The position numbers were made by a program, and so were the translations under genes. 64,000 bases of DNA. Source: Vicinamibacterales bacterium (GTDB lineage Bacteria; Acidobacteriota; Vicinamibacteria; Vicinamibacterales; UBA8438). Position 1 is the first letter of the stretch; each line of letters begins with the position of its first letter. The stretch spans positions 55,757-119,756 of the forward strand of contig DASCQF010000109.1 of the NCBI GenBank assembly GCA_036012905.1, given 5' to 3'. This document shows, in pieces, positions 1 through 34,233 of the stretch. The notes beneath the pieces are model-generated. The model was not told the origin of the DNA and ran no database searches. It worked only from the letters and a program-made list of their open reading frames with translations.

Positions 1-2162
1 ATCTTGCTCTTGGTGCCCTTCCCACCCTCGGTATGCCAGATATAGTTCGAACCATAGTTGGCCCAGAGCCCTCGGCCCTTCCAGCCGGTGTTCGGATCGT
101 CGATCCGCCCGTCGAGACCGCGCGAGTAAAAGGCCATCGGGTACGGCACACGAAGGATGACCCACTCGCCGCTCTCCGGGTCCAGCGCGAGCAGCGAGTC
201 CGAGGTCGACCCGTTGGCAATCGGCACATTCTCGCCCATCCCCAGCGTGTTGAACTGGTCGACCCAGCTGTAGTAGTGGAAGTCGGCGCCAACGTTGCCC
301 TCGACGCCACGCATCTTCGGCCCCGGCATCGGATACAACGTCCATCCCTCGGGACAATGCTGGCCGGTCGCGGTCCGTCCATTGGTGACGGCGCACTTGG
401 TACGGTCGAAGCTGGCCATGTGGCTGCTTCCCGAGAGCGCCGCCCAGATGACGCCGTTGCGGTCGACATCGATGCCGCGCGGCGCGAACCCGGTATCCAT
501 CGGGTCAATAGCCGAGTTCTCGATCGACGGCGGCTCATACATCTCGGCAATGCACGTCTCTGGCGGGTTGTCCCCTCGGTCGAGTCGGACGATGGCCCCC
601 GGAAACGGCCCCGTCCGGCTGATCCACACCGAGTCGTCTGTCGGACTGGCTATGATGCCGTAGCCGAATCCGGCCACGCGGGTGTCGAGCGCCGAGTCCG
701 GGCTCTCGGCTCGCGGCTCGTTCCACGGCCTGGTGATTTCACCGTCGCCGTTGGTGTCGAGCACTGTCGGGCACCAGCCCTGTGAGAACTGCCCGTCGCC
801 GGTCTCGTCAAAGACCCGCGTATTGATCCACCCGATGACGTTGCCGTCACCGCTGAACCAAAGCGTGTCGTCCGCATCTTCACCGAACTGCAGGTGGTGT
901 GTGCCAAAGCAGGTGTCGACCAAAACGAACCGCTCACGGGCCGGGTCGTAATAGGACGCATGGCGACCGGTCCGACCATTCGAGTAGTACTGCGCGTAGA
1001 TGTTGTCGGATCCGTCGCGGCACCAGTCTGGATTCTGGAACTGCCGAACCGTCGAGGTCATCCAGACACGGCCCTTTTGGTCCAACATCGGATTGTGTGG
1101 GTCGGACCGCTCATTCGCACCGACGCCCCACAGCTCCTCCTCACCCCAGTAATAGGACGCAACCTGGACGTCTGGGAACCGGGTCGGCATCGTTTCAGGG
1201 TCTGGCCGCACCGGAATCGTCAGCTCTGTCGCCGAATTGGCGACCGGGTCCACCATCGTGATGCTGCCGTGCCCGGCCGACACGCCGTAGACCGGTCCGC
1301 CGGCGTTCATCCGCGGGTTTCGTTTGTCGGTAGCAATCTCGTCGTGGATGAACGAGTGGTCCGTCCCCCAGTCCCACAGCGTGACCACGACGTTCTGCTC
1401 GACGCCATCGGGACGCGGCGGCGCCTCGGGCACGGCGCCGGATGCGATGCGGTCGGTCCAGTCGGCGAACATCTCGAGCGCCGGCTCGCGGCCAAACCGG
1501 TTCATCGTGTTGCTCATCTGGTTGCCACGCTGCCCGGTCTTCACCCGGTGGTCCCAGGCGGCAACCGTCGAGTCGAACTCGTCACGGTGCTGCACGACAC
1601 GGGTGGCATCGTTTCCGAGCTGGTGACAGAGCTGGCACCCCTGCTTCATGTTGTCCACCCAGTGGCCCTGGGTGCGCATGCTTGGGTTGATGCCGTTCCC
1701 GCCGTTCCCGGTGCCGGGGAACTCGCTGGCCGCCGGCGGTTCGATTAGCGAATACCAGTAGTTGCCGGGGTAATACTGGGCGGCGTCGCGCGGCGTCGGC
1801 GCGATCACCGCTTCGAGCGCCACGTCCTCCTGTCCCGTCGACAACCTGACCTTGTCGGAGTCGACCAGGCCGTAGCCTCGGACCCAGACGTCATAGGTCG
1901 CATCGGGCATCTGCGGCAGGACGAACCGGCCACGATCGTCGGTCACAACGACCTTCGCGAACTTCGTATCGAGCTCTTCCGTCTCTGCGATGACCCAGAC
2001 GCCGGCCTCGGGTCCGTTGTCGCTGGTCACGGACCCGGTAATGACCCCGTCGGCCATCGACGCGCCCTGACGAGCTGACGTGGTCGCGGTCCATACGGCA
2101 ACGCCGAGCGCCAACAACAGCATCGGCACGAGCGTGTAACGCTGGCTGATTGCGGTGCGCAT
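1..2162 (-). CDS. Secreted monoheme cytochrome c / probable beta-propeller protein of unknown function (paralog 1, 3' end outside window)
   Basis: Absent from the ORF track because it runs off the edge. Read by hand from ATG at 2162 (MRTAISQRYTLVPMLLLALGVAV, signal-like), with KQGCQLCHQLG, IHDEIATDKR, PHNPMLD, DTCFGTHHL, CPTVLDTNGDG and IWHTEGGKG. Colinear with the protein at 22463-24643. Confidence 0.9.
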   Translation of the reverse strand, partial: MRTAISQRYTLVPMLLLALGVAVWTATTSARQGASMADGVITGSVTSDNGPEAGVWVIAETEELDTKFAKVVVTDDRGRFVLPQMPDATYDVWVRGYGLVDSDKVRLSTGQEDVALEAVIAPTPRDAAQYYPGNYWYSLIEPPAASEFPGTGNGGNGINPSMRTQGHWVDNMKQGCQLCHQLGNDATRVVQHRDEFDSTVAAWDHRVKTGQRGNQMSNTMNRFGREPALEMFADWTDRIASGAVPEAPPRPDGVEQNVVVTLWDWGTDHSFIHDEIATDKRNPRMNAGGPVYGVSAGHGSITMVDPVANSATELTIPVRPDPETMPTRFPDVQVASYYWGEEELWGVGANERSDPHNPMLDQKGRVWMTSTVRQFQNPDWCRDGSDNIYAQYYSNGRTGRHASYYDPARERFVLVDTCFGTHHLQFGEDADDTLWFSGDGNVIGWINTRVFDETGDGQFSQGWCPTVLDTNGDGEITRPWNEPRAESPDSALDTRVAGFGYGIIASPTDDSVWISRTGPFPGAIVRLDRGDNPPETCIAEMYEPPSIENSAIDPMDTGFAPRGIDVDRNGVIWAALSGSSHMASFDRTKCAVTNGRTATGQHCPEGWTLYPMPGPKMRGVEGNVGADFHYYSWVDQFNTLGMGENVPIANGSTSDSLLALDPESGEWVILRVPYPMAFYSRGLDGRIDDPNTGWKGRGLWANYGSNYIWHTEGGKGTKSK

Positions 2163-2405
2163 TTCCTCTGTCCTCCCCTCCGCACGACGACCGTCCTGTG
2201 CGGCTTTCTTGAGCTATGGATGCGGTATCCGCGCACACTGTACCTGAGGTGCCCGGAAGGGGTCAACGGCTGAAGTGGTTCTCGGATATGACGGGCATCA
2301 CTTGGCGAGCGGGGCCCACTTCGATAAGATCTGGGGCCTGTCTGCACGGCGGTGCCCGCCTCCTCCACGGCACAGCGCTATAAAGATGATTCGGACCTGG
2401 AAGAG

Positions 2406-2984: not shown

Positions 2985-3063
2985 AGGCACGCCTTATCAC
3001 GTGCGTGCGGCATCGCGGGTCTGAGAAACCGTCGCTGCGTCAGGTACAGGAGATGAAGAGTCG

Positions 3064-6000
3064 GTGAGCCGGGGCAAGTCATCGCTGGTCGAGGTGGTCG
3101 AGCGTCGCACGTTCCTCAAGGTGCTGGGGAGCGCCGGCCCGGCGGCGGCGATCGCCGCCTGCTCGCCCGTGCCACCCGAGAAGATTATCCCGTTCGTGAT
3201 CCCGCCCGAGGACGTCATCCCCGGGGTCGCCACCTGGTATGCCAGCGTGTGCGACGAGTGTCCGGCCGGCTGCGGCACCCTGGTGCGCACCCGCGAAGGT
3301 CGGGCGGTCAAGGTCGAGGGCAACCCCGAGCACCCGGTCAACCGGGGCGGACTGTGCGTCCGGGGCCAGTCGTCGCTGCAGGGGCTCTACAACCCGGACC
3401 GGATCACCGGTCCGCAGCGCCGCCGTGTCACCAACGAGGCCGCCGGGCAGAGCGTGCTCGAGCCGGTGCCCTGGGACGAGGCGCAGCAGCAGCTCGTCGA
3501 TCGGCTGCAGACGCTCCGTGACGCCGGCCGTGGCGACCGGGTCGCGCTCGTCACTCCTCCGCTGACCGGCACGATGGCGACCCTGGTCTCCACCTGGGCG
3601 GACGTCCTGGGCGCGCGCTGGGTGCGCTACGAGCCGTTTGCCTACGAAGCGATTCGCCGGGCCAACGCACAGCTGTTCGGACGCGCCGAGCTGCCGCACT
3701 TCGACTTCGCGCGGGCCGACCTGCTGGTCTCGTTCGGCGCCGACTTTCTCGAGACGTTTGTCTCACCGGTCGGCTTCGCCCGCGACCACGCCGGCCAGCG
3801 CCGTGTTCGCGACGGGGAAAAGGCCCGATTCGTCCAGATCGAGCCGCGGTTGTCGATGACGGGCGCGAGTGCCGACGTCTGGCATGCGGTGCCCCCAGAA
3901 ACCGAAGGCCTCGTGGCCGCGGCGATGGTGCGGACGATTGTCGATGAGGGGCGGGCGCAGGGCGTGACCGCCGGGCTTCTCGAGCAGATCGCGGCGCTCG
4001 TCGATGGCGCGTCACCGAACCAGGTCGCCGTGACAAGCGGAGTCTCCGCCGACACCATCCGTGAGCTGGCCCGCGCGTTCTCGGACCCGGCACTGGGCCC
4101 GGGCCGCACCCTCGCCGTGGGCGGGGGCGTTGGCGTCTCCGGCTCGAACGCCACCGCGTCGCACACGGCGGTCACCCTGCTGAACCTGGTCGCGGGCAAC
4201 ATCGGTGCGACCGTCGACTTTTCGGCCGCCTCCGCCCTCGGCACGGCCGCAACCTACGCCGAGATGCGTGACCTGGCCGACGCCATGCGGTCGGGTGATA
4301 TCGAGCTGGCGATCATCCACAATGTCAACCCGGTCTTCACGATGCCGGGAGCCGCCGACTTCGGGGGCGCGCTGGCGCAAGTGCCGTTCGTCGCCGGGCT
4401 GTCGAGCCTGCCGGACGAGACGACCGCACAGGCCGACCTGCTGCTCCCCACCCACACCGCACTCGAAGCGTGGGGCGACAGCAATCCCCGTCACGGTGTG
4501 CATGGCCTGGTCCAGCCGGTGATGCAGCCGGTGTTCGACACCCGGCACGTCGGCGAGGTGCTGGCCGAAGTCGGACGGGCGCTGGGTGACGAACCGGCGG
4601 CCGCGCTGCCGCGGCGTGGGTTCTACCGCTTTCTGCGAGACGAGTGGGAGCAGCTGCAGCCGGTGCCCGAACCGGACCCCGAGGCCGAGGAGCCGGTCGC
4701 ACCCGATTTCGAGCCGTTCTGGGCGGACGCCCTCCGACGGGGCGGCATCACCCTGCCGGTAGAGCCGGTCTCCTTCGAGCTGAGTCCGGCGATCTTCGAC
4801 ACCGATCTGGTCGGCGATCTGACCCCGGCGTCGACCGCCCGAGCCTACACGCTGGTGACCTACCCCTCGCTGCACTTCTACGACGGCCGCGGCGCCAACC
4901 GCCCGTGGCTCCAGGAGATTCCGGAGCCGCTGCTCAAGACGACGTGGGGCACCGGGGTCGAGATGACCTCGGACACCGCACGCGCTCTCGGCGCCGAGGA
5001 AGGCCGCCTGGTCGCGATCGAGTCCGACCACGGTCAGGTCGACGCGAGCGTCATCATCAACCCGCATCTGGCGGACGGCGTGGTCGCGATCGCCATCGGA
5101 CAGGGGCACACCAACTTCGGACGCTACGCCACCGGCCGCGGGGTGAACCCGATCGCCCTGCTCGACCCAGAACCGGAGGCCGCCTCGGGCGGCGTGCGGT
5201 GGCTCGGCACCGGTGTGGACATCACCCCGCGCGAGTTGGAGCGCCCAATTCCGCGGCTCCAGTACACCTTCGACCAGGACGGACGCGAGCTGGCGCAATC
5301 GGTGTCGCTGGCGACCCTGGCGGCCGGAGAGGCGCACGCCGAGGAGCACCACTTCAGCCTGTACCCGGAACACGACCATCCGGTGCATCACTGGGGGATG
5401 GCGATCGACCTGGACGCCTGCACCGGGTGCAATGCCTGTGTGGCCGCCTGCTATGCCGAGAACAACATCCCGGTCATGGGCGCTGACCGGATGCGCCGCG
5501 GCCGCACGATGTCGTGGCTGCGGATCGAGCGGTTCGTCGAACCGGGCGCGGGGGACGCGGGACCGGACACCCGGTTTCTACCGATGCTGTGCCAGCATTG
5601 CGACCACGCGCCGTGTGAGGTGGTGTGTCCGGTCTACGCGACCTATCACACCGACGAGGGGTTGAACGCGCAGGTCTACAACCGCTGCGTCGGCACCCGC
5701 TACTGCTCGAACAACTGTCCCTACAAGGTCCGCCGGTTCAACTGGTTCATGCCGGAGTTCGACGCGCCGCTGCCGCTGCAGCTGAACCCGGACGTCACCG
5801 GCCGAAGTGACGGGGTGATGGAGAAATGCACTTTCTGTGTGCAACGCATCTATGACGGGAAGGACGTCGCCCGGGACGAGAATCGCCCGGTGCGGGACGG
5901 CGACGTGCTACCGGCGTGCGGGCAGAGCTGCCCGACGCAGGCGATCGTCTTCGGCGACACGAACGACCCCGGGAGCCGGGTGTCCCAGCTCTCGAACGAT

Positions 6001-6078
6001 GCACGCGCGTATCACGTGCTGAGCGTGATCAACACCCGGCCGGCGGTGACGTATCTGAAGAAGGTGACGCAGGCATGA
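3064..6078 (+). CDS. actB: ACIII subunit ActB: molybdopterin-oxidoreductase-fold domain fused to a multi-[Fe-S] ferredoxin domain
   Basis: Tat motif ERRTFLK plus lipobox AIAAC. C-terminal CTGCNACVAAC, CQHCDHAPC, CVGTRYCSNNCP and EKCTFC motifs. Operon position fits. Confidence 0.92.
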   Translation: MSRGKSSLVEVVERRTFLKVLGSAGPAAAIAACSPVPPEKIIPFVIPPEDVIPGVATWYASVCDECPAGCGTLVRTREGRAVKVEGNPEHPVNRGGLCVRGQSSLQGLYNPDRITGPQRRRVTNEAAGQSVLEPVPWDEAQQQLVDRLQTLRDAGRGDRVALVTPPLTGTMATLVSTWADVLGARWVRYEPFAYEAIRRANAQLFGRAELPHFDFARADLLVSFGADFLETFVSPVGFARDHAGQRRVRDGEKARFVQIEPRLSMTGASADVWHAVPPETEGLVAAAMVRTIVDEGRAQGVTAGLLEQIAALVDGASPNQVAVTSGVSADTIRELARAFSDPALGPGRTLAVGGGVGVSGSNATASHTAVTLLNLVAGNIGATVDFSAASALGTAATYAEMRDLADAMRSGDIELAIIHNVNPVFTMPGAADFGGALAQVPFVAGLSSLPDETTAQADLLLPTHTALEAWGDSNPRHGVHGLVQPVMQPVFDTRHVGEVLAEVGRALGDEPAAALPRRGFYRFLRDEWEQLQPVPEPDPEAEEPVAPDFEPFWADALRRGGITLPVEPVSFELSPAIFDTDLVGDLTPASTARAYTLVTYPSLHFYDGRGANRPWLQEIPEPLLKTTWGTGVEMTSDTARALGAEEGRLVAIESDHGQVDASVIINPHLADGVVAIAIGQGHTNFGRYATGRGVNPIALLDPEPEAASGGVRWLGTGVDITPRELERPIPRLQYTFDQDGRELAQSVSLATLAAGEAHAEEHHFSLYPEHDHPVHHWGMAIDLDACTGCNACVAACYAENNIPVMGADRMRRGRTMSWLRIERFVEPGAGDAGPDTRFLPMLCQHCDHAPCEVVCPVYATYHTDEGLNAQVYNRCVGTRYCSNNCPYKVRRFNWFMPEFDAPLPLQLNPDVTGRSDGVMEKCTFCVQRIYDGKDVARDENRPVRDGDVLPACGQSCPTQAIVFGDTNDPGSRVSQLSNDARAYHVLSVINTRPAVTYLKKVTQA

Positions 6079-7409
6079 GCTTCGCCAAGGTCAACGACGA
6101 CATACTGCGGACACTGCGACCGCCGGGCGGGTTGTACTTCGTCGGGCTTGCCCTGGCGATCGTCGCCTTCTCGGTCGGCTTGGTGGCGTTTCTGCACCAA
6201 GCCCGGACCGGCATGGGGGTTGCCGGCTACGAACATCCCATTCTCTGGGGCATCTACATCACCAACTTCGTGTTCTGGGTCGGCATCGCGCACTCCGGCA
6301 CGCTGATCTCGGCGGTCCTGTTTCTCTTCCGGGCCAAGTGGCGCACGGCGGTGGCGCGCGCGGCCGAGGCGATGACGGTGTTCGCGGTCATGACCGCGGG
6401 GTTGTTTCCGATTATCCACATCGGCCGCCCGTGGTTCTTCTACTGGCTGTTCCCGTACCCGAACCAGCGGGAGCTGTGGGTGAACTTCCGGTCGCCGCTG
6501 GTCTGGGACGTCTTCGCCATCAGCACCTACCTGACGGTGAGCGCGATGTTCCTGTATCTCGGACTGATGCCGGACATCGCTGCCGTGCGCGACAAGATCA
6601 AGGACTGGCGCCAGCCGATTTACCGCGTGCTGTCACTTGGCTGGCTCGGAACGGACAGGCAGTGGCGACACCACACCGCGTTGTACGGCTTCTTCGCCGC
6701 GCTGGCGACCCCGCTCGTCGTCTCGGTCCATAGCGTCGTGTCCTGGGACTTCGCGACGTCGATCCTGCCGGGGTGGCACAGCACCATCTTCGCGCCCTAC
6801 TTCGTCGCCGGAGCCATCTTCTCGGGGCTCGCGATGGTGATCACCCTGCTGGTGCCGATGCGGCGGATCTTGAAGCTGGAGAGCTACATCACCGTGCATC
6901 ACTTCGAGAACCTCTCGAAGCTGATGCTGACCACCTCGCTCATCGTGGGCTACGCGTATATGACGGAATTCTTCATCGCGTGGTACAGCGGCAGCCCATT
7001 CGAACAGGGGACGTTCATCGATCGGATGTTCGGGCAGTACTGGGGCTTCAGCTGGATGATGTTCACGTGCAACGTGCTCATTCCGCTGCTGCTCTTCTCA
7101 AAGGCGATCCGCACCAATCTGACGTCGTTGTTCGTCATCTCGATCTTCGTCAACATCGGGATGTGGCTGGAGCGGTTCGTGATCATCATGACGTCGCTCT
7201 CGCACGATCTCGACCCGGCGAACTGGGCGGGCGTCTATCGGATCACCTGGGTGGAGACGAGCATCACCATTGGAGCGTTCGGGCTGTTCTTCACGTTGTT
7301 TTTGCTGTTTGTGAAAAATTTTCCGGCCGTCTCGATCACCGAGCTGAAAGAAACGATGGAGCGGCCGGCCGAGGCCGACCCGGCCACTGCCTGGCCGGAA
7401 CCTGTGTAG
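6075..7409 (+). CDS. actC: ACIII subunit ActC (NrfD/PsrC-like quinol-binding membrane subunit)
   Basis: ITNFVFWVGIAHSGTLISA, SPLVWDVFAISTY and SVHSVVSWDF motifs. ATG at 6075 overlaps the actB stop (ATGA). Confidence 0.93.
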   Translation: MSFAKVNDDILRTLRPPGGLYFVGLALAIVAFSVGLVAFLHQARTGMGVAGYEHPILWGIYITNFVFWVGIAHSGTLISAVLFLFRAKWRTAVARAAEAMTVFAVMTAGLFPIIHIGRPWFFYWLFPYPNQRELWVNFRSPLVWDVFAISTYLTVSAMFLYLGLMPDIAAVRDKIKDWRQPIYRVLSLGWLGTDRQWRHHTALYGFFAALATPLVVSVHSVVSWDFATSILPGWHSTIFAPYFVAGAIFSGLAMVITLLVPMRRILKLESYITVHHFENLSKLMLTTSLIVGYAYMTEFFIAWYSGSPFEQGTFIDRMFGQYWGFSWMMFTCNVLIPLLLFSKAIRTNLTSLFVISIFVNIGMWLERFVIIMTSLSHDLDPANWAGVYRITWVETSITIGAFGLFFTLFLLFVKNFPAVSITELKETMERPAEADPATAWPEPV

Positions 7410-7416
7410 CGCCATC

Positions 7417-7920
7417 ATGCCAGAGCAAGTGGAGATTCTCGGCATCTACGACCGCAGCGCGAAGGCGGCGGTCGGCGCCCGCGCAGTCCTCGACGGGGGG
7501 CTGGGCGCGGTGGTCGCCTATGCGCCGGTGCCGGACCACGCCCTCGACCGCGCGTTGCACGTCACCGTCAGCCCGATACGGCTGTTCGTGCTGATCGGAG
7601 GGCTACTCGGGTGCGCCACAGGATTCGTTTTTCCGATCTACACGGTGCTCGACTGGCCGTTGATCACCGGCGGCAGACCGCTCATCTCCATTCCGCCCTT
7701 CGTAGTCATTGCGTTCGAGTTGACGATCCTGTTCGCGGCGGTCAGCGGTATGGCCGGGTTCCTGCTGATGTCGAGGCTGCCGCGCGTCACCGGCCGGCCG
7801 GCGCCCGACGCGCGGTTCACGAACGACATGACGGGTGTCAGCGTGTCCTGCGCGCCAGAGCAGTCGGCGAGCGTGCGGGCGTGTCTCGAACGAACGGGCG
7901 CACACGAGATCAGGGAGTGA
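7417..7920 (+). CDS. actD: ACIII subunit ActD (DUF3341)
   Basis: Two TM segments, WPLITGGRP and FELTILFAA motifs, position after actC. Confidence 0.85.
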   Translation: MPEQVEILGIYDRSAKAAVGARAVLDGGLGAVVAYAPVPDHALDRALHVTVSPIRLFVLIGGLLGCATGFVFPIYTVLDWPLITGGRPLISIPPFVVIAFELTILFAAVSGMAGFLLMSRLPRVTGRPAPDARFTNDMTGVSVSCAPEQSASVRACLERTGAHEIRE

Positions 7921-8426
7921 TGATGGGTAAAGCGACATTGTCGGCGTGGGGACGACGGCTCTTCCTGATCGCGTTGCTTCTCGCGATGACCGGCGCCGTC
8001 ACGTCGGCGCAGCTGAGATTCATGCGCAACATGTTCACGAGCCCGGTCGTGCAGCCGCAGGTAGCGCCGCGGGTGCCGGTTGAGGACACGATCCCGGTCG
8101 ACGGAACCCAGATCCTGGACAAGATATCGTCGATAGACCTGCCCAACCCCCGGCCCAACACGCCCGAGGTGCTGCAAGAGGGCGCGTGGCTGTACGGGGT
8201 CTATTGCGCCGTGTGCCACGGCGCGGACGGGCAGGGCGACGGGCAGATCGCCGAGCACTTCCGGCGAATGCCGAGCATGCCCAGCATCCAGAACCGTACC
8301 GACGGGTTGATCTACGCCATCATCCGCGAGGGCGGAGCCAACATGCCGGCGTTCGCAGACACGATGAGCGTCGATGAACGATGGGCGCTCGTGCACTTCA
8401 TCCGGACGTTTAGAACGCCAGAATGA
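7920..8426 (+). CDS. actE: Monoheme cytochrome c, ACIII subunit ActE-like
   Basis: Single CAVCH, NMPAF (candidate Met ligand), DERWALVHFIR and an N-terminal hydrophobic segment. Start overlaps the actD stop. Confidence 0.85.
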   Translation: MMGKATLSAWGRRLFLIALLLAMTGAVTSAQLRFMRNMFTSPVVQPQVAPRVPVEDTIPVDGTQILDKISSIDLPNPRPNTPEVLQEGAWLYGVYCAVCHGADGQGDGQIAEHFRRMPSMPSIQNRTDGLIYAIIREGGANMPAFADTMSVDERWALVHFIRTFRTPE

Positions 8427-9679
8427 TCTCCGTCGGCACTCCGGTCGTTTCGGACGGCACTCGCCGCCTCTATCTCGGCGCCGGTCTCGTAGGCGCGGCG
8501 GCGTTTCTGTACGGCGTGTTCCTGGGCGACAGCATTCGGGCGTGGCAGTCGTTGCTGGTGAACTTCCTGTTCTTCGGCGGGCTGGCGCAAGCGGGCGTCG
8601 TGCTCTCGGCGATCATGCAGGTGACCACGTCGCGGTGGGGCCGAGCGCTGAAGCGCACCGCCGAGGCGACGTCGGCGTTCCTCCCGGTCGCGTTCCTACT
8701 GTTGCTCGTGTTACTGGCCGGCGTGTCCGCGTGGGCGCCGTGGGTGCACGACCCGGTCGAGGCCAAGCAGGCCTGGCTCAACATCCCGTTTTTCGTAACA
8801 CGCCAGATTCTCGGGTTCTTGCTGCTCAGCGGGATCAGCCTGCTCTACGTGTACCGGTCGGTGCGTCCGGACCTCGGGATGCTCGACCAGTCGGGCGAGC
8901 ACACGGCGGACGGGTTCGCGCGTCGGCTGATCGCCGGCTGGCGCGGTATCCACGAGGAGCGCGAAATCGCCCAGCGAGCTCAGAGCCGGCTGGCACCGGC
9001 GGTGCTGATTGCCTATGGGTGGATTTTCACCCTGGTCGCGTTCGACTTCTTCATGTCGCTGGACCCGCACTGGTTCTCGACATTGGCGGGCGGCTACTAC
9101 TTCATCGGTAACCTGTTCATCGGGCTCGCCTTTCTGGCGGTCGTCGCGGTCTGGGCGCGCGAACGGTTGCAGCTGACGGAATATCTCGGCCCCCACCAGT
9201 TGCACGACGTAGGCAAGCTGCTCTTCGGCTTCTGCATCCTCTGGGCCTACATGTTCTGGTCACAGTATCTGGTGATCTGGTTCGGCGACCTGCCCGAGGA
9301 GACCGAGTTCATCTATCACCGGATGAACGGCGCCTGGGCGCCACTCGCCTGGACCGTGTTCGCCATGGCGTTTGTCATCCCGTTTGTTGTGCTACTGAGT
9401 CGCGCCGTGAAGACCAGTCCGCGCGGACTGACGGCCATCGCGTGTGTGGGTCTCGTCGGCATGTGGCTCGAGCGCTTCATCCTGGTGTCCCCGTCGCTGT
9501 GGCACGGCGAGGGTGTCCCACTGGGTGTCATCGAGCTGCTCGTCACCGCCGGCGTGCTGGGATTGTTCGCGTGGTGCTACACGACGTTCCTCCAGACCCT
9601 CCCAGTGCTGCCATTGGCCGATCCTCGTCTAGAGCCGGCGTCGGCCCATCCCCAGGCGCACGATCTCCATGCGGGGTAA
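8423..9679 (+). CDS. actF: ACIII subunit ActF (NrfD-like membrane subunit)
   Basis: Polytopic protein with MSLDPHWFST, HDVGKLLFGF and SQYLVIWFGDLPEE motifs. Confidence 0.9.
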   Translation: MISVGTPVVSDGTRRLYLGAGLVGAAAFLYGVFLGDSIRAWQSLLVNFLFFGGLAQAGVVLSAIMQVTTSRWGRALKRTAEATSAFLPVAFLLLLVLLAGVSAWAPWVHDPVEAKQAWLNIPFFVTRQILGFLLLSGISLLYVYRSVRPDLGMLDQSGEHTADGFARRLIAGWRGIHEEREIAQRAQSRLAPAVLIAYGWIFTLVAFDFFMSLDPHWFSTLAGGYYFIGNLFIGLAFLAVVAVWARERLQLTEYLGPHQLHDVGKLLFGFCILWAYMFWSQYLVIWFGDLPEETEFIYHRMNGAWAPLAWTVFAMAFVIPFVVLLSRAVKTSPRGLTAIACVGLVGMWLERFILVSPSLWHGEGVPLGVIELLVTAGVLGLFAWCYTTFLQTLPVLPLADPRLEPASAHPQAHDLHAG

Positions 9680-10740: not shown

Positions 10741-11637
10741 ATGAACATTGCGGTGATCGGAATGGGCACCATGGGTGCCCCGATGGCGAGAAACCTGCTG
10801 AAGGCAGGCCACAGCGTGGTCGTGCACAACCGGACCCGCGAGCGGGAGGAACCTCTCGAGGCGGAGGGGGCCGCCCGCGCCGAGAGCCCGGCGGCGGCGG
10901 CGCGTGAGGTCGATGTTGTGCTGACCTGCGTCTCCGACACGCCAGATGTACAACGCGTGCTGCTCGACCCCGAGATCGGCGCCATCAACGGACTGCGCGA
11001 GGGCGGGCTGGTCATCGATTGTTCGTCGATCGCGCCGGCGGCCACACGCGACATCGCTGCGACGTTCGGCGAAAAGAACATCGGCTATGTCGATGCACCG
11101 GTCTCGGGAGGCTCGGAAGGAGCCATCAAGGGCACGCTGGCCATCATGTGCGGCGGCAGCACAGCCGATTTCGAGCGCGCCAAACCGGTGCTTGAGATCC
11201 TTGGCGGCAAGATCACACACATAGGCGACGTCGGCGCCGGGCAGATTGCCAAAGTGGCGAACCAGGTGGTCATTGCCGGGACCTTCCTGGCCCTCGGGGA
11301 AGCGCTGACGCTTGCCAGCAAGGCGGGCGCCAATCCCGAGAAGGTGGTCGAGGCGATCGCGGGCGGTGTAGCCGGCTCATGGATTCTGCAGAACCGGTCG
11401 GGCAATATGTTGAACGACACGTACCCGCTCGGTTTTCGCACCCGGCTGCACCGCAAGGATCTGGGCATCGCCCTCGAGACGGCCCGCACATTCGAGGTAC
11501 CGGTCCAGATTGCCAGCCTCGTGGCGACCATCGAAGACGGCCTGATCGCCCAAGGCTTCGGCGACGAGGATATGTCGAATTTGGCGCGCTTCGTCCGGCG
11601 GGGCGCCGGTGTGCCGGACGGACCAATGAAAGGGTGA
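10741..11637 (+). CDS. NAD(P)-dependent 3-hydroxyisobutyrate/tartronate-semialdehyde reductase family oxidoreductase
   Basis: IGMGTMGAPMA Rossmann motif, DAPVSGG and KVANQ catalytic Lys motif. Confidence 0.9.
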   Translation: MNIAVIGMGTMGAPMARNLLKAGHSVVVHNRTREREEPLEAEGAARAESPAAAAREVDVVLTCVSDTPDVQRVLLDPEIGAINGLREGGLVIDCSSIAPAATRDIAATFGEKNIGYVDAPVSGGSEGAIKGTLAIMCGGSTADFERAKPVLEILGGKITHIGDVGAGQIAKVANQVVIAGTFLALGEALTLASKAGANPEKVVEAIAGGVAGSWILQNRSGNMLNDTYPLGFRTRLHRKDLGIALETARTFEVPVQIASLVATIEDGLIAQGFGDEDMSNLARFVRRGAGVPDGPMKG

Positions 11638-11638
11638 A

Positions 11639-12340
11639 ATGCGTAGAAAGGTGTATCCGAGCTCGGTAGCGGCGCTCGACGGGCTGCTGCACGACGGCAT
11701 GACGCTGATGGTGGGCGGCTTCGGCCTGTGCGGTGTACCGCAGAGCCTCGTGCAGGCGCTGCGCGACTCGGGCGTCAAGCAACTCACCTGTATCAGCAAC
11801 AATGCCGGAGTGGACGGCGCCGGGCTCGGGTTGCTGCTCGAGACACGCCAGATCGACAAGATGATTGCCAGCTATGTCGGCGAGAACAAGTTATTCGAAA
11901 AGCAGTTTCTCGACGGCACCATCGAGGTCGAGCTGAATCCACAGGGCACCATGGCGGAGCGGATGCGGGCCGGAGGCGCAGGTATCGCCGCCTTCTACAC
12001 CCCGACCGGCTACGGCACCCCGTTGACCGAGGGCAAGGACACCCGCGAGTTCGACGGCCGCTGGTATGTGCTGGAGACGGCACTCCATGCCGACGTGTCG
12101 CTGGTGAAGGCGTGGAAGGCGGACGAGGCGGGCAACCTCGTCTACCGAATGACGGCCCGGAACTTCAATCCGCCGATGGCGGAGGCGGGACGGGTCACCG
12201 TGGCCGAGGTCGAGGAGATCGTGCCGGCCGGCGAAATCGACCCGCACATGGTGCACACGCCAGGCATCTACGTTGACCGGGTGGTCGTCGGCGAAAACCA
12301 GGACAAGGTCATCGAGCGCCGGAAGACTCGCGAAGGATAA
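11639..12340 (+). CDS. scoA: 3-oxoacid CoA-transferase subunit A
   Basis: [26 protein letters not shown] and TARNFNP motifs. Confidence 0.9.
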
Positions 12341-12345
12341 GCGCC

Positions 12346-13002
12346 ATGCCACTCAACCGCGAACAGATTGCCGCACGCGCCGCTCGGGAGATCCAGGACG
12401 GCTACTACGTGAACCTTGGCATCGGCATCCCGACACTGTGCGCCAATTTCATCCCGGACCACGTCGACGTCAAGCTGCAAAGCGAGAACGGCCTGCTGGG
12501 GATCGGGCCCTACCCCACCGAGGACGAGATCGACGCCGACCTCATCAACGCCGGGAAGGAAACTGTTACCGCCGTCCCCGGCGCCAGCTACTTCAGCAGC
12601 GCCCAGAGCTTCGCGATGATCCGTGGCGGTCACATCGACCTCGCGATTCTCGGCGCCATGCAGGTCTCGAGAGAGGGCGACCTCGCGAACTGGATGATCC
12701 CCGGCGCGATGGTCAAGGGGCCCGGCGGCGCCATGGATCTGGTGACCGGCGCCAAGCAGGTCCTGATCGTCATGGGCCATCTGTCGAAGCGGGGCGAGCG
12801 AAAGATTCTCAACCGCTGTAGCCTGCCGCTAACCGGCAAGAAGGTGGTCAACACCCTGGTCACCTCGCTCGCCGTCATCGAGGTGACGGCGGATGGACTC
12901 CGGCTGCTGGAACGCGCCCCGGGCGTGACGGTGGACGAGATCCGGGAGGCAACCGAGCCGGCGCTGCTGACCGATGGCGAGGTGCCGGAGGTGACGGTCT
13001 GA
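12346..13002 (+). CDS. scoB: 3-oxoacid CoA-transferase subunit B
   Basis: [15 protein letters not shown] (catalytic Glu) and GPGGAMDL motifs. Confidence 0.92.
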
Positions 13003-14479: not shown

Positions 14480-14535
14480 CGCGTGTCGGCGTTGTCCGTG
14501 GCGACCCTGCCTATCGGCGACAGCCCGCAGGAACA

Positions 14536-14593
14536 GAGGCCGGCGAAGCCCTCCGGCCTTCTTCTGACTTCCGACTTCTGACTTCTGACTTCT
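14536..14593 (+). repeat. Repeat family A, copy 2 (TTCTGAC heptamer tail)
   Basis: gaggccggcgaagccctccggccttcttctgacttccgacttctgacttctgacttct. Confidence 0.8.
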
Positions 14594-22462: not shown

Positions 22463-24643
22463 TCAGTTGGCGAGCGGGTCCGGTCGCACCTGGAACTTCA
22501 CGATGCCAGGCCTGACGCCCTTGCCGCCTTCGATGTGCCAGGTCACCGCCGCCCCATAAGTCGCCCACACACCGCGGCCCTTCCACCCGCCGTTCGGGTC
22601 GTCGATGCGACCGTCGAGCCCACGGGCGAAGAAGCCCTGCGGATACGGCACCCGCAGCACGGTCCACTCACCGCTCTCCGGATCCAACGCCAGCAGCGAG
22701 TCCGAGTTCGACCCGTTCGCGATCGGCACGTTCTCGCCCAGCCCGAGCGTGTTCCACTGATCGACCCAATTGTAGTAGTGGTGGTCGGCGCGCATCGGCG
22801 GGTCGGTGCCCCGAATGCTCGGGCCGGGCGTCGGATACAGCGTCCACCCGTCGACACAGTGCCGCCCGTCGACCACCGTCGGACCGCGGGTGACGTCGCA
22901 CTTGGTGCGGTCGAAGCTGGCGAAGTCGCTGCTCCCGGACAGCGCCGTCCAGACGACGCCGTTGCGGTCGATGTCGATCCCACGCGACCCGAACCCGGTC
23001 TTCTCCTTCGGCACGCTCGGGTCGAGGACCGACGGCACCTCGTACATCTCGGACACGCAGGTCTCGGGCGGGTTGTCGCCGACATGCAGACGCGCCAGCC
23101 GGCCGGGGTACTGGGTCGAGGAGATCCAGACCGCCTTGTCGTCGAGTGGGTCGGCCACGATCCCGTAGCTGCCCACCACGACGCGCGTGTCGAGTGCGGT
23201 ATCCATGTTCTCGTAGTTGCCGCGACGGTCCGGCTCGTTCCACGGCGAGGAGATCTTGCCGTCGCCGTTGGTGTCGAGCACGGTCGGGCACCAGCCCTGC
23301 GAGATCTGTTCGTCACCGGTGTCGTCGTACGTCTTCGTGTTGAGCCAGCCGATCACCTGCCCCCCGCCGCTGAAGTACAGCGTGTCGTCGTCATCCTCGG
23401 CGAACTGCAGATGGTGCGTGCCGTAACACGTATCGATCATCACGAACTTCTGCGTCTCCGGCTCGTAGTAGACCGCGGACCGGCCACTGTTCTCCATCGG
23501 GAAGTACTGCGCGTAGGGGTTGTCCGAACCCGCCTTGCACCAGTCCGGGTTGCCGCGGCCGCGAATCTGCGAGGTCAGCCAGACCCGCCCCTCGCTGTCC
23601 ATCATCGGGTTGTGCGGGTTGGCCGGATCGTTCCAGAGCATCTCCTCGCCCCAGAACCGCGACGGCACCGGCATCGACTGCGAGATCATCCCAGGCACGG
23701 TCGCCGGGTCCGCGCGCAGCGGAATCTTGAGGTTCGTTGCGAGATGGGTCTCGGGGTCGAGGATCGCCAGCTCGTCGTTGGAGATGTTCACCCCGTAGAT
23801 CGGTCCGCCGGCGTTCACCCGGGGGTCACGCTTGTCGGTGGCGATCTCGTCGTGGATGTAGTCGAACTCGGTGCCCCACTCCCACATCGAGATCACGACG
23901 TTCCGCTCCGCGCCCTGCGGGCGGGGCGGCGCAAGCGGCACGGCACCGGAGGCGATCCGGTCGCTCCAATCGGCAAACATCTGTAGACCGCGCTCGCGGC
24001 CGAACCGGCTCATGACGTTGCTCATCTGCGAGCCGCGCTGGCCCATCTGCACCCGGTGGTCCCAGGCGGCCAGTGCCGAGTCGAATTGGTCGAGGTCGTC
24101 GATCTCGCGGACGATCCGGTTGCCCAACTGGTGACAGAGCATGCAGCCCTGTTTCTGGATGTCGACCCACTGCCCCTGGTGCTGCAGGTTCGCGGAGATG
24201 CCGTTCCCGTCCGGTCCGGTGCCGGGGAACTCGCTCGCCGCGGGCGGCTCGATCAGCGAATACCAGTAGTTGGCAGGGTAGACCTTGGCGGCCTCGGCCG
24301 GTGTAGTCGCCACGGTGGCCTGGATGTCGACGGTCGCGCCCGGTTCAGCAGTGACGCCGGCCGAATCGAGCAGGCCGTAGCCGCGGACCCAAACCTTGTA
24401 GCTGGCCTCGGGGAGATCGGGAATCAAATAGCGTCCGCCGTCACCGGTCACCACGCTCTTGATGAACTTGGTGGGAAGATCGGTCGTCTCGGCGATGACC
24501 CAGACCCCCTCCTCGGAACCGTTCGAGCTGGTAATGGTGCCGCTGATGTCACCTTCGGCGGCTCGACCCGGTGTCGTGAGCCACACGAGTGACACAGCCA
24601 CCAGCATGGCGATTCCCAGCACACTCGCGATGCGAGTCCTCAT
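22463..24643 (-). CDS. Secreted monoheme cytochrome c / probable beta-propeller protein of unknown function (paralog 2)
   Basis: Signal peptide MRTRIASVLGIAMLVAVSLVW, carboxypeptidase-regulatory-like N-domain, CMLCH, beta-rich C-terminal region and DTNGDG loop. RBS AAGGGGGA before ATG 24643. Confidence 0.9.
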   Translation of the reverse strand: MRTRIASVLGIAMLVAVSLVWLTTPGRAAEGDISGTITSSNGSEEGVWVIAETTDLPTKFIKSVVTGDGGRYLIPDLPEASYKVWVRGYGLLDSAGVTAEPGATVDIQATVATTPAEAAKVYPANYWYSLIEPPAASEFPGTGPDGNGISANLQHQGQWVDIQKQGCMLCHQLGNRIVREIDDLDQFDSALAAWDHRVQMGQRGSQMSNVMSRFGRERGLQMFADWSDRIASGAVPLAPPRPQGAERNVVISMWEWGTEFDYIHDEIATDKRDPRVNAGGPIYGVNISNDELAILDPETHLATNLKIPLRADPATVPGMISQSMPVPSRFWGEEMLWNDPANPHNPMMDSEGRVWLTSQIRGRGNPDWCKAGSDNPYAQYFPMENSGRSAVYYEPETQKFVMIDTCYGTHHLQFAEDDDDTLYFSGGGQVIGWLNTKTYDDTGDEQISQGWCPTVLDTNGDGKISSPWNEPDRRGNYENMDTALDTRVVVGSYGIVADPLDDKAVWISSTQYPGRLARLHVGDNPPETCVSEMYEVPSVLDPSVPKEKTGFGSRGIDIDRNGVVWTALSGSSDFASFDRTKCDVTRGPTVVDGRHCVDGWTLYPTPGPSIRGTDPPMRADHHYYNWVDQWNTLGLGENVPIANGSNSDSLLALDPESGEWTVLRVPYPQGFFARGLDGRIDDPNGGWKGRGVWATYGAAVTWHIEGGKGVRPGIVKFQVRPDPLAN

Positions 24644-24825: not shown

Positions 24826-25209
24826 CTACTTTCTCGACGCGGACCAGTCACCCGTCCCGTACCAGCTGAAGCTTCCCTGGGCACCCGTGATCATATCGCC
24901 GGACAGCTCCCCTTCGAAGGCGATTGGCTGGTCGCCGTCGAGGTCTGGCACGACGATGACGAACTTGAGTGTGGCGCCGGCGATGGTGCCATCTACCGAC
25001 AGCACTTCGTTGTCGCCGAGGTCGATCTCGCCACCAAGCTTGTCTCCGTCCTGCTCGAACGTGGCCTGCCACGTCGTGATACCTGTCTGGGTGCTCAACT
25101 TCATCTCCCAAGCGCCCGCCACCCCGCTCTGAGTCTGAGCACGACTAGAGGACAGCGCGACCAGCGCGGTGAACATGACCAACGGTGCGATGACTAGACG
25201 CTTCCCCAT
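24826..25209 (-). CDS. Small exported beta-rich protein
   Basis: Signal peptide [24 protein letters not shown], then VAGAWEM...[10 protein letters not shown] beta-strand pattern. Confidence 0.7.
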
Positions 25210-25616
25210 CGATACTATTCCGTCTCCTGCAAGACCTTCGTGTGCCACGTGACGCCGAACCACGACCGCCTTCTTGCCGCCGGTCCGCACTCGAGTGTCG
25301 TGAATTGCGCGACAGGACCAGAACGGATGCGCCAGGCCGGCAGAGAGGTCATTGTATGGCGCTGGCTGCAAGCAGGTCAAGGTCGCAAGCCACGCCTGTT
25401 CAACACATTAGCTGCAATCGTGAGTGCCCGTACATGCCGAGATTCCGACGTTCCACGGGACCGTCTGAGAGGAGGCACCATCGACCCGCCGAGGTTGTCC
25501 GGCGACCAGGGTACGGGCTGCCTGACCAGAGCCTCACGCTTGACGCGGAGCGACATCCGTACGATCCTACGACCCGCCCGGCCGGGCGCCTCGTCGCTGG
25601 CCGCGCCGAGATCGGC

Positions 25617-27128
25617 ATGACGAGTACCCAAAGCACCGCATCGACCGTTTCCTTCTGGATCAACGGAGAGCACGCGCCAGCGGCCGGGTCGCGCCACGGC
25701 ACGGTGACCAATCCGGCGACGGGCGCGGTGATCCGTACGGTGCCATTCGCCGACGACACAGATGTCGATGCGGCAGTCGAGAGCGCCCGCGCGGCCTTCC
25801 CGGCGTGGCGCGCCACGACGCCGTTGCGACGCGCCCGTATCCTCATGCGTTTTCGGGACCTCCTCGAACGGCGCACGGACGACGTGGCTGCCGCGATTAC
25901 CGAGGAACACGGCAAGACGCTGCCCGATGCCACCGGCTCGGTGCAGCGCGGGCTCGAGGTGGTCGAGTTCGCCACCGGCATCCCGCATCTGCTGAAGGGC
26001 GAGCATGCCGAGGACGTCGGCACCGCGATCGATTCGCACACGCTGAGGCAACCGCTCGGCGTCTGCGCCGGCATCACGCCGTTCAACTTCCCGATCATGT
26101 GCCCGATGTGGATGATTCCGGTCGCGCTGGCGTGCGGCAACACGTTCGTATTGAAACCATCCGAGAAGGACCCGTCGGCGAGCATGCTGGCGGCTCGGCT
26201 CCTCTCGGAGGCCGGCCTACCGGACGGCGTGCTCAATGTCGTGCACGGTGACAAGCAGGCAGTCGACGCACTACTGAGGCACCCCGACATCGCCGCCGTC
26301 TCCTTCGTCGGGTCGACCCCGGTCGCCCGACACATCTACGAGACCGCGAGCGCCAATGGCAAACGGGTACAAGCGCTGGGTGGCGCGAAGAACCATGCGG
26401 TGGTCCTGCCGGATGCCGATCTCGACGCAGCCGCCGACGCGCTGATCGGCGCCGCGTTCGGTTCGGCCGGTGAGCGCTGTATGGCGATCTCCGCCGTCGT
26501 GGCCGTCGGAAGCGCCGGCGACGCCATCGTGTCTCGCCTGCGGGAGCGGGCGACCGCGTTGCGGGTCGGCCCGGGCGACCGCGACGGCGTCGAGATGGGA
26601 CCGCTCATCACGCAGGCGCATCTCGAGCGGGTCCGCGGCTATGTGGACGCCGGCGAGCGGGAGGGCGCCGACCTCGTGGTGGACGGACGCGGGCTGACGG
26701 TCGCCGGGTGTGAGACCGGTCACTTCCTGGGCCCGACGCTGTTCGACCGCGTGACGCGCGACATGTCGATCTATCGCGACGAGATCTTCGGGCCGGTGCT
26801 GGTCGTCGTACGAGCGGAAAGCGACGGGGAGGCGATCGAGATCGTCAACCAGAACCCGTATGGCAACGGCACGGCGGTGTTCACCGAGTCGGGCGCCTCG
26901 GCCCGCCGATTCACCAACGAAATTCAGGTGGGGATGGTGGGCGTGAATGTCCCGATTCCTGTGCCGATGGCATTCTTCTCGTTCGGCGGCTGGAAGAGCT
27001 CGCTGTTCGGCGACCTCCACGTGCATGGTCCTGACGGTGTCAGGTTCTACACGCGCACAAAGGTGGTCACCACGCGGTGGCCACGACAGCGCGACGCGGT
27101 GAGCCTGAACATGCCAACGATGACGTAG
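25617..27128 (+). CDS. mmsA: CoA-acylating (methyl)malonate-semialdehyde dehydrogenase
   Basis: [38 protein letters not shown] and [15 protein letters not shown] at 25617. Confidence 0.92.
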
Positions 27129-27212
27129 GGACCGTGTTCTGAACACTCATCCCTTCACCACGGTGTCCCTGTGGCGACGACCGCCTCGGGACCGGGAGGC
27201 CGGATCTCAGAC

Positions 27213-28646
27213 ATGTCTGCAACGCTGATTCGCTCGATCGGCAACCTCGGAGAGAGCCTGTCGCGCTTCACGCAGCGATGGATACCAGACTCCTGGGTCG
27301 TCTGCATGACCCTGACCGTGCTGGCGATGCTGCTGGCGATCTTCGGCGCCGGCGCCGGGCTCGAGGAGACGGCGCTCGCCTGGGGCGGCGGCATGTGGGC
27401 GCTGCTCGAGCTGGCGATGCAGTTCACGATCGCCATGATCGCCGCGCATGCGTGCGTGTCGTCGCGGCCGGCATTCCGGTTTCTCGACTGGCTCGCGAGC
27501 CGTCCGGACGCCGACCGGCCGGTGCAGGCTGTGGTTCTGCTGGGCGCGTTCTCGATCGTTGTCGCCTATTTCAACTGGGCGGCGAGCGTGGTCGCCTCGG
27601 CACTGTTCGTCCCGTTCATCGCGCGGCGGAACCCGAAGGCGGACATCCGGGTGATGATCGCCGCTGGGTATCTCGGTCTGGGTACCGTCTGGCATGGCGG
27701 GATCTCCGGCTCGGCACCGCTGATCCTGGCCACGCCTGGCAATCCGATCACGACGCCGCCGCCCGGGACCGAGCCGCTCATCGACGGCCTCCTCCCGATT
27801 ACCGAGACGCTGTTCAACGTGTTCAACCTGACCTACCTGCTGGTCGTGTCGCTCGTCGCGCTCGGGATGGTGGCCCTCCTGCACCCGCGCCAGAATCCGC
27901 GCACCCTGACCGAGGACCAGCTGCAACGGATCATGCCGGTGATGCCCGAGGAGGCGGAGCGGACCACGCCGGCCGCCCGCATCGAGGCGTTTCGCGGATG
28001 GATCTTCCTGGCGGTGATCCTGATCGGCTATCCGCTCGGCCGCTCGTTCACGACCGAGGTGCTGTCGGGACCGCAGCCGTTCTTCACATCGTTCGAGACG
28101 TGGTTCGGCGCCAACTGGACAATCAACGCCTACAACGCGGTGTTTCTGATCGGCGCCCTGCTGCTGCAGGGACGACCGTCGAACCTGGTCCGGGCCTTCG
28201 GCAACGGCGCCCCCACGGCGTCGGGGGTCATCCTCCAGTTCCCCTTCTACGCTGGAATCTTCGGGGTGATCAACAGCACCGGCCTCGGCGACTGGCTGGG
28301 TGAGCTGTTCGTGCAGGTCGCCACCACCGACACCTATCCCCTGATCGTGTACATCTACTCGGGGATCGTGAACGTGTTCGTGCCGTCCGGCGGGTCGAAG
28401 TGGCTGATCGAGGCTCCCTACCTGCTACCGGCCGCCAGAGAACTGGCGGTGTCGCCGACGACCACCCTGCTCGCGTACTGCTACGGCGATTCGACCAGCA
28501 ACCTGATCCAGCCGTTCTGGGCGATCCCGATCCTGACGGTCACGCGAATGAAATTCGGCGACGTGCTCGGCTACAGCGGCCTCATCGCAGTGGTGCTGTT
28601 CATCGTCACGGGGATCGCGATGCTGGTCATCCCACCCATGTTGTAG
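27213..28646 (+). CDS. atoE: Short-chain fatty acid transporter (AtoE family)
   Basis: WIPDSWV, WHGGISGSAPL, ILQFPFYAGIFG, VPSGGSKW and NLIQPFWA motifs. Confidence 0.85.
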   Translation: MSATLIRSIGNLGESLSRFTQRWIPDSWVVCMTLTVLAMLLAIFGAGAGLEETALAWGGGMWALLELAMQFTIAMIAAHACVSSRPAFRFLDWLASRPDADRPVQAVVLLGAFSIVVAYFNWAASVVASALFVPFIARRNPKADIRVMIAAGYLGLGTVWHGGISGSAPLILATPGNPITTPPPGTEPLIDGLLPITETLFNVFNLTYLLVVSLVALGMVALLHPRQNPRTLTEDQLQRIMPVMPEEAERTTPAARIEAFRGWIFLAVILIGYPLGRSFTTEVLSGPQPFFTSFETWFGANWTINAYNAVFLIGALLLQGRPSNLVRAFGNGAPTASGVILQFPFYAGIFGVINSTGLGDWLGELFVQVATTDTYPLIVYIYSGIVNVFVPSGGSKWLIEAPYLLPAARELAVSPTTTLLAYCYGDSTSNLIQPFWAIPILTVTRMKFGDVLGYSGLIAVVLFIVTGIAMLVIPPML

Positions 28647-34053: not shown

Positions 34054-34159
34054 CTATCTAGTTATCAGGGATTCGAATATCGATGTAGTCGAGCGATGAC
34101 GGACCTGGAGCCGGCCGGACGAACTCTTGATTGTCCTTCACCGCTGCGCGGTCACGCAA

Positions 34160-34233
34160 CCTGCCTCCTGCCTCCTGCCTCCTGCCTCCTGCCTCCTGCC
34201 TCCTGCCTCCTGCCTCCTGCCTCCTGCCTCCTG
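34160..34233 (+). repeat. Perfect heptamer tandem repeat (CCTGCCT) x ~10.5
   Basis: Read directly: 74 bp between the divergent acnA and nfo starts. Confidence 0.95.

Follow-up and report, generated by a model that had tools for sequence, protein, structure and literature searches.

The question raised by this locus is what an exported protein that joins a cytochrome c domain to a beta-propeller does in the periplasm. The gene, P0001 (22463..24643, minus strand, 726 amino acids (aa), from an open reading frame (ORF) call), lies in the window, that is, the whole 64,000-nucleotide stretch of contig DASCQF010000109.1 of a Vicinamibacterales bacterium that was analysed. The original prediction, made from the letters of the sequence, had placed it in an uncharacterised monohaem propeller family and proposed a metal active site with six conserved His, in analogy with the copper cluster of NosZ. 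The analysis showed that P0001 represents a real, widespread and uncharacterised enzyme family, and it points, at a probability of about 0.45, to a periplasmic dehydrogenase in which one metal bound by three His would pass electrons to haem c.

A purine-rich stretch resembling a ribosome-binding site precedes the ATG of the gene. The protein starts with a Sec-type signal peptide (residues 1-28, 24560..24643), recognised by eye and lacking a twin-arginine motif, followed by a CarboxypepD_reg Ig-like domain (residues 33-110, 24314..24547; Pfam PF13620, E 1.2e-6, slightly below the curated cut-off, with 19/19 paralogs matching). A helical monohaem cytochrome c domain (about residues 116-234, 23942..24298) and a seven-bladed Vgb-like propeller with long insertions (residues 249-719, 22487..23899) make up the remainder, all on the minus strand. 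Conservation was read from alignment A2, in which 93 full-length matches were reduced to 78 (below 88% identity) and joined by the query, giving 79 sequences. The cytochrome domain has class I features, namely a helical fold in the AlphaFold2 (AF2) model, the CxxCH haem-attachment motif (C167, C170 and H171, each 79/79; 24131..24145) and a distal Met. This is Met207 of the RGxQM loop (24023..24037), conserved in 79/79 sequences and in 31/31 of a second sample, so that the residue proposed at the outset as a haem ligand is still the likely distal one.

The AF2 model on A2 (pLDDT 93.8, pTM 0.93) was laid out as the Ig-like domain, the helical haem domain and seven four-stranded blades, and the strand that follows the haem linker closes the ring. 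Both VIA structural searches put the Vgb lyases first (Z 24.8-25.1, root-mean-square deviation (rmsd) 2.4-2.5, about 290 residues), the best match being 2z2n (Z 25.1, rmsd 2.4, 289/293 residues aligned), and the next propellers, WD40 proteins, followed at Z 21.1-21.5, about 4 units below. Vgb (PDB 2Z2N and 2QC5; Pfam PF24684) shares with P0001 the seven blades, the closure and His at first-strand positions over 289-294 aligned residues, whereas identity is 10-13% and P0001 differs by about 180 residues of insertions and by the added signal peptide, Ig-like and cytochrome c domains. PF24684 and the NCBIfam Vgb(A)/(B) models gave no match for P0001 or its 18 paralogs, and a PF24684 search of the genome listed none of the 19 loci. 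A Foldseek search with the full model, a check suggested from the start, returned only generic WD40-type propellers.

In the model, H264, H344, H410, Y493, R554, Y623 and R674 each open the first strand of a blade, in the order of blades 1 to 7, with D265, N345 and H411 one residue further into their strands. This position presumably faces the central funnel of such propellers, where we take their active sites to lie. A conserved polar residue stands at each of the seven (H, H, H, Y, R, Y and R/K), and the same pattern was seen in soil and Microvirga members. Blade 1 bears His264-Asp265 (23846..23854; 77/79 and 79/79), blade 2 bears His344-Asn345 (23606..23617; His 74/79, the second position being N in 70 and S in 9) and blade 3 bears His410-His411 (23411..23419; 74/79 and 79/79). 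Tyr493 of blade 4 (23162..23167; 79/79), Arg554 of blade 5 (22979..22984; 77/79), Tyr623 of blade 6 (22772..22780, shared with His622; 79/79) and Arg/Lys674 of blade 7 (22619..22624; R in 61 and K in 18, together 79/79) form a tetrad opposite the His of blades 1-3. The triad HHH (264/344/410) was complete in 72/79 sequences, while the tetrad read YRYR or YRYK in 77/79.

All motifs named in the original prediction (CxxCH, RGxQM, HDE, PHNP, DTC, THH, GWCP, DTNGDG, HYY and WH) were found in both window paralogs, which are identical at 439/691 positions (64%). Since the pair shares 9/13 His (binomial P=0.46), it is by itself no evidence of His conservation, and the family data carry the claim for most of the residues. 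The two paralogs are real, but the genome, a marine acidobacterial one of 5.2 Mb, holds 19 full-length copies (tblastn and hidden Markov model (HMM) searches). Two further samples were counted beside A2: 31 more members, several of them fragments and with soil and Microvirga members included, and 150 divergent representatives at 50% identity, in which positions were counted only where the local alignment was good. H264 was kept in 31/31 and 84/92 of these, H344 in 31/31 and 60/75, H410 in 26/27 and 68/87, and H411 in 27/27 and 84/86, respectively. H703 was kept in 78/79 sequences of A2, 13/22 further members (Leu in 9/22) and 32/40 divergent representatives, and H622 in 56/79, 1/22 and 15/57, respectively. 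By these alignments the proposed set of six His therefore shrinks to four family-wide residues (H264, H344, H410 and H411), H703 being partial and H622 clade-specific. H622 sits one residue ahead of the blade-6 position, in keeping with how much it varies.

The haem domain and the propeller were docked as two chains, with an ipSAE of 0.95 against 0.00 for the best of three controls; this mark was reached by 116/157 solved pairs and 2/215 mismatched ones. The runs agreed in at least 97% of contacts with partner pLDDT of at least 91. On the propeller side the predicted interface comprised R554, Y623, W702, H703, E705 and loops of that face, including the Trp702-His703-x-Glu705 loop of blade 7 (22529..22540; E705 79/79), and on the haem side the CxxCH segment and the loop before Met207. 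Segments of this kind frame the exposed haem edge in class I cytochromes. The cytochrome c domain is thus predicted to cap the propeller face ringed by conserved His, Tyr and Arg.

The dehydrogenase reading follows from this arrangement, because the edge of an invariant His/Met haem is predicted to face a funnel holding three His, an Asp, a fourth His and a Tyr/Arg clamp. P0001 would be exported by Sec and would carry haem covalently at CxxCH, with His171 and Met207 as probable ligands of an electron-transfer haem whose domain covers the propeller on its loop face. His264, His344 and His410, which hold the same position in adjacent blades, would bind one metal (Cu, Fe or Zn), with Asp265 and His411 as an extra ligand or base. 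Tyr493, Arg554, Tyr623 and Arg/Lys674 may grip the substrate by a negatively charged group that is probably a carboxylate. Electrons would leave by the side of Tyr623, Trp702 and His703 to haem c and on to periplasmic cytochromes, and the 19 paralogs would serve different small organic substrates. Precedents among propellers are thiocyanate dehydrogenase, whose tunnel-bound metal site delivers electrons to a monohaem cytochrome (PMC9456337), and PAL, with its single Zn and Tyr/Arg dyad (PMC6529398, PMC10303134). Of the metal active site first proposed, what stands is that AF2 places the four core His at first-strand positions of three consecutive blades, 1 to 3, with the haem domain predicted on that face; the proposal itself is reduced to a single metal.

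Related proteins bear on which part of this site is shared. Shorter proteins with the same order (Ig-like domain, CxxCH, Pfam Vgb_lyase above its cut-off) were found in the genome and at several other loci, and no solved member of these sister families was found. One sister profile (A4) matched A2 in HHalign at 98.6% (E 1.1e-15, 444 columns) and in reciprocal HMM searches, the match spanning the Ig domain, the haem, the linker and the blade-1 His-Asp. The family of a second sister, L097, matched more weakly, at 93% as a single sequence and, as profile A3, at 65% with the Ig domain only. In 53 distinct members of the first sister family, blades 1 to 7 carried His-Asp (53), Leu (51), Gln (53), Tyr (53), Arg (52), Tyr (52) and Arg (49), where blade equivalence past blade 1 is by blade counting in two AF2 models, the HHalign alignment being out of register from there on. 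Another 12 sister proteins had Tyr on blade 4 (12/12), Arg on blade 5 (12/12), Tyr on blade 6 (11/11 aligned) and Arg on blade 7 (8/8 aligned). Vgb was likewise the top structural match of the sister AF2 model. The sisters (e.g. L096 and L097, auto-named 'streptogramin lyase/cytochrome c5') thus resemble P0001 in domain order, in the tetrad and, for the L096 type, in the blade-1 His-Asp; they differ in length (555-640 aa), in lacking the Ca-loop and disulfide insertions and, in the L096 type, in lacking the His of blades 2-3. The Tyr-Arg-Tyr-Arg tetrad, missed by the original prediction, is the part common to the superfamily; with its half of the ring, which is predicted to contact the haem domain, it is the shared core, and the His set is an addition of the P0001 family. 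The L097 protein itself (L097:1213-3123, G000:C102) has 859 homologs, many of them auto-named streptogramin or virginiamycin lyase, and carries Gln-Asp, His-Glu and Gln-Ser on blades 1-3. A member of the P0001 family stood alongside in 17/80 sister-family metagenome loci, these loci being closely interrelated.

A wider proposal, put forward tentatively and at less than even odds, is that the scaffold of the Vgb antibiotic lyase underlies a large and so far unrecognised superfamily of haem-c oxidoreductases in the periplasm. In it a Tyr-Arg-Tyr-Arg clamp under the haem edge would be universal and blades 1-3 would form a variable catalytic half. The P0001 family would have added the three-His site, giving a new class of mononuclear metal-haem dehydrogenases amplified by deep-sea and soil Acidobacteria and their neighbours to oxidise dissolved organics.

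Several observations weigh against the dehydrogenase reading. The arrangement of the His was read from strand positions in the model and not from distances, and H264, H344, H410 and H411 are not among the named interface residues; they may be set further down or in the distant half of the ring. The docking figures express model confidence only, as the partners were two domains of one protein, run with a custom alignment and with ligands present, outside the calibration of the tool. The three-His site is unnecessary for the shared function, because the sisters keep the haem and the tetrad with other residues on blades 2-3. Part or all of the triad is missing from 7/79 homologs, including 3/19 paralogs. 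No fixed gene partner of the family was found across the loci examined, and no conserved operon partner hints at a substrate. A PQQ (pyrroloquinoline quinone)-type dehydrogenase lay within 6 kb of 9/19 paralogs against 12.8% of all ORFs (ORFs from a simple in-house caller, as for the other proximity counts), but this proximity is non-specific because other amplified exported families match it (28/70 and 4/8). The three paralogs form the deepest branch of a midpoint-drawn tree and have lost two or all three triad His; they retain D265, H411, Y493, Y623, H703 and E705. Their loci, L005:10386-12551, L006:7033-9129 and L016:7536-9608, were noted as divergent copies without most of the triad, and in the copy at L005 the haem motif reads Cx3CH, as it does in some sister proteins too.

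A different use of the same residues, which we regard as rather unlikely, is a quinohaemoprotein-like or cd1-like enzyme in which the Tyr/Arg crown would hold an organic anion as cofactor, either PQQ or a further haem bound non-covalently, and the His would act as acid-base catalysts or axial ligands. The superfamily conserves the tetrad and not the His set, as this reading would have it, and in soluble PQQ dehydrogenases and cd1 Arg and Tyr bind cofactor carboxylates beneath a cytochrome cap; cytochrome cd1 likewise has its cytochrome c domain fused over a propeller active site. Two sister proteins matched TIGR03606 weakly, far under its cut-off. The genome has about 84 PQQ-type dehydrogenase-like ORFs, yet pqqC was not found in it and was above the cut-off in only 2/10 genomes with full-length members, which is a weak test since PQQ can be salvaged. 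Known PQQ enzymes have six or eight blades, and no PQQ or cytochrome D1 Pfam match was obtained in the 19 paralogs at E<=0.1. The type II quinohaemoprotein alcohol dehydrogenase, described in an excerpt of PMC9456337 as having a cytochrome c domain fused above the propeller active site, differs from P0001 in its eight blades and organic cofactor, and P0001 has no Pfam PQQ/GSDH or D1 match.

An improbable reading is that of a non-redox Zn/Mg lyase or hydrolase of the Vgb or PAL kind, in which the haem domain would serve as a lid or redox switch. Vgb is the closest fold, but Tyr623 and Arg674 occupy the blades of Vgb His228 and His270 (numbering taken in part from the title of 2Z2P), an equivalent of Glu268 is absent, and the Glu-Pro-His motif has no counterpart; in no blade does Glu rank among the four most frequent residues at position -2. 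His270, His228 and Glu268 are the catalytic residues of Vgb. PAL holds its metal by three His, and the triad with Tyr/Arg in P0001 is reminiscent of it. PAL has one Zn and a Tyr/Arg dyad within its propeller according to passages of PMC6529398 and PMC10303134; unlike P0001 it has six blades, is haem-free and is non-redox. A six-bladed NHL propeller of the PAL type was not found, as P0001 has seven blades and an NHL match was obtained in 1/19 paralogs (E 0.021). The genome encodes 17 cytochrome-fused putative PHM-like proteins that could supply carbinolamide substrates, but such a gene lay within 6 kb of only 1/19 paralogs (baseline 3.5%). A haem with invariant His/Met, across this whole family and in its sisters too, would make little sense unless electrons are transferred.

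The single-metal dehydrogenase is also to be set against a multi-copper cluster enzyme like NosZ or thiocyanate dehydrogenase (TcDH), which we hold to be improbable. NosZ has seven blades, as has P0001, with His on the ring and Ca sites, and NosZ 5i5m was met at Foldseek rank 37 amid generic propellers (TM 0.35 by target). The CuA cupredoxin domain is absent from P0001, which ends with the propeller and has no Pfam match there; its His are too few, with 3-4 in a ring site, haem is present instead, and no nos accessory genes were found for it. The analogy with the NosZ copper cluster is accordingly not supported. The 97%-complete genome gave no match to NosL, SCO or PCuAC (controls positive in 2, 7 and 4 of 14), and no copper genes were seen among the neighbours scanned; a nos_propeller search gave no match in the genome and none in the controls either. 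Neither VIA search had TcDH, NosZ, methanethiol oxidase or cd1 among its best 50 matches; these could stand at lower ranks. No sequence match between TcDH and P0001 was obtained. According to PMC9456337 and PMC6504805, TcDH is a periplasmic propeller of seven blades whose central tunnel holds the metal and whose electrons go to a monohaem cytochrome, and it has His-His and His-Asp pairs as P0001 does (His135-His136 and His528-Asp529; PMC6504805). It differs in its three Cu, its seven His round the ring where blades 4-7 of P0001 bear Tyr/Arg, its separate cytochrome c552, its adjoining copper genes and its Tat export (PMC6504805), the signal of P0001 being Sec-type. By analogy, the most plausible way of working for P0001 is that of TcDH with a fused cytochrome, or that of a quinohaemoprotein, set on a Vgb scaffold; it belongs to none of these groups.

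A reductase, or a non-catalytic redox sensor or ligand-binding protein, is equally improbable: cd1 nitrite reductase has the same N-terminal-haem layout and Vgb-like propellers also serve as sensor domains (BT4663 and BT4673 in the structural searches), but about ten catalytic-type residues are strictly conserved, which favours catalysis, and no signalling genes recur among the neighbours.

The family comprises at least 7,998 clusters at 90% identity, with 7,998/7,999 scored candidates matching the propeller region, and 1,990 representatives at E<=1e-30, many of them fragmentary. The closest relatives were labelled Vicinamibacterales, and further carriers were Gammaproteobacteria, Gemmatimonadota, Terriglobia, Verrucomicrobiia, Deltaproteobacteria and Acetobacteraceae. 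In a phylum sample, full-length members were present in 10/151 genomes, the own genome counted, and the other 30 matches were weak and restricted to the Ig domain. Members are annotated at source as 'carboxypeptidase regulatory-like domain-containing' or hypothetical. Pfam, NCBIfam, PHROGs and PDB sequences gave no match for the haem or propeller parts, Pfam seeing PF13620 only, and ESM Atlas matches were confined to unnamed family clusters. No member with a solved structure or a name was found, and a search of open full-text literature, which does not extend to subscription journals, found no paper on the family or its sisters. A very common family is thus annotated by its Ig-like domain alone, and its sisters are auto-named streptogramin or virginiamycin lyases despite the haem and differing residues. 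A metal-haem dehydrogenase, if real, would add a novel kind of oxidation to the periplasmic repertoire of uncultured bacteria from sea and soil, and haem reduction would offer a ready readout for substrate screening. A cultured carrier is Microvirga ossetica, whose plasmid encodes member WP_099514940.1. That gene (L106:8953-12560, on a large plasmid) is flanked by a DUF6064 gene on one side and a PQQ sugar dehydrogenase fragment on the other, and its His703 is replaced by Leu.

Forms of 470-474 aa, considered as haem-less variants, all begin at internal Met253 and were read as assembly errors; locus L024 has a stop and a short scrambled stretch within a frame otherwise 76% identical. A longer fused form was seen in 1/3,703 candidates, as an amidase-joined gene model of a sponge assembly, and was not trusted. 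Contigs from four RNA-library runs overlapped parts of the P0001 gene and also adjacent genes; DNA carry-over is possible, and transcription was not shown.

Other conserved elements look structural. The Ca-type loop pointed out originally (Dx[DN]xDG, here DTNGDG; 23258..23275) is conserved (D457 79/79, N459 72/79, position 461 D in 61 and N in 18, G462 79/79), but it is an insertion between blades 3 and 4, is not among the named interface residues of the docking model, and is likely structural. The Cys residues, also conserved as first claimed, behave as three likely disulfide pairs (C369/C406, C452/C529 and C582/C596; 22856..23539). In A2, C452 and C529 were present together in 63/63 sequences and absent together in 16/16, while C369, C406, C582 and C596 were each 79/79, so their pairing is probable rather than read from co-variation.

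Recurrent neighbours of the family were PQQ dehydrogenases (27/96 loci) and ankyrin, DUF1592 and DUF1552 genes (15, 15 and 10, respectively), families which are themselves amplified and cluster in the same islands. DUF1592 cytochromes lay within 6 kb of 6/19 paralogs (baseline 3.9%) and ankyrins of 5/19 (2.7%). At loci elsewhere the neighbours were hydrolases, transporters and TonB receptors (61/112 picked neighbours scanned). Cytochrome c assembly genes were present in the genome, which also contains 70 copies of a small exported protein without a Pfam match and 17 DUF1592 cytochromes.

The second window paralog (3..2162, minus strand) is truncated by the window start and complete at G000:C109:55717-57918. 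Divergent from it, an operon resembling alternative complex III (2352-9679, plus strand; cytochrome checked by Pfam) presumably encodes a pentahaem cytochrome, a molybdopterin-like/Fe-S subunit and NrfD-like membrane subunits. This adjacency recurs in 4 related loci, and the operon is a candidate electron sink. Directly downstream of P0001 (13354-22311, minus strand) lie a TonB-dependent receptor and a MoxR AAA ATPase, followed by what are presumably a DUF58-like gene and a pair of vWA-like ones. Among related loci, the receptor was met again in 6 and MoxR in 8, mainly near close orthologues of P0001. Upstream, on the same strand, is an exported-looking ORF of 184 aa (24826-25380) without a Pfam match. 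The plus-strand segments 10741-13002 and 25242-28646 contain a hydroxyisobutyrate-dehydrogenase-like gene, a 3-oxoacid CoA-transferase pair, a methylmalonate-semialdehyde-dehydrogenase-like gene and a short-chain fatty acid transporter, the transporter alone being Pfam-checked. Intergenic tandem repeats at about 34130-34220 and 14500-14560 translate as LLPPASC-like units, which also occur upstream of genes elsewhere in the genome and are possibly REP-like elements.

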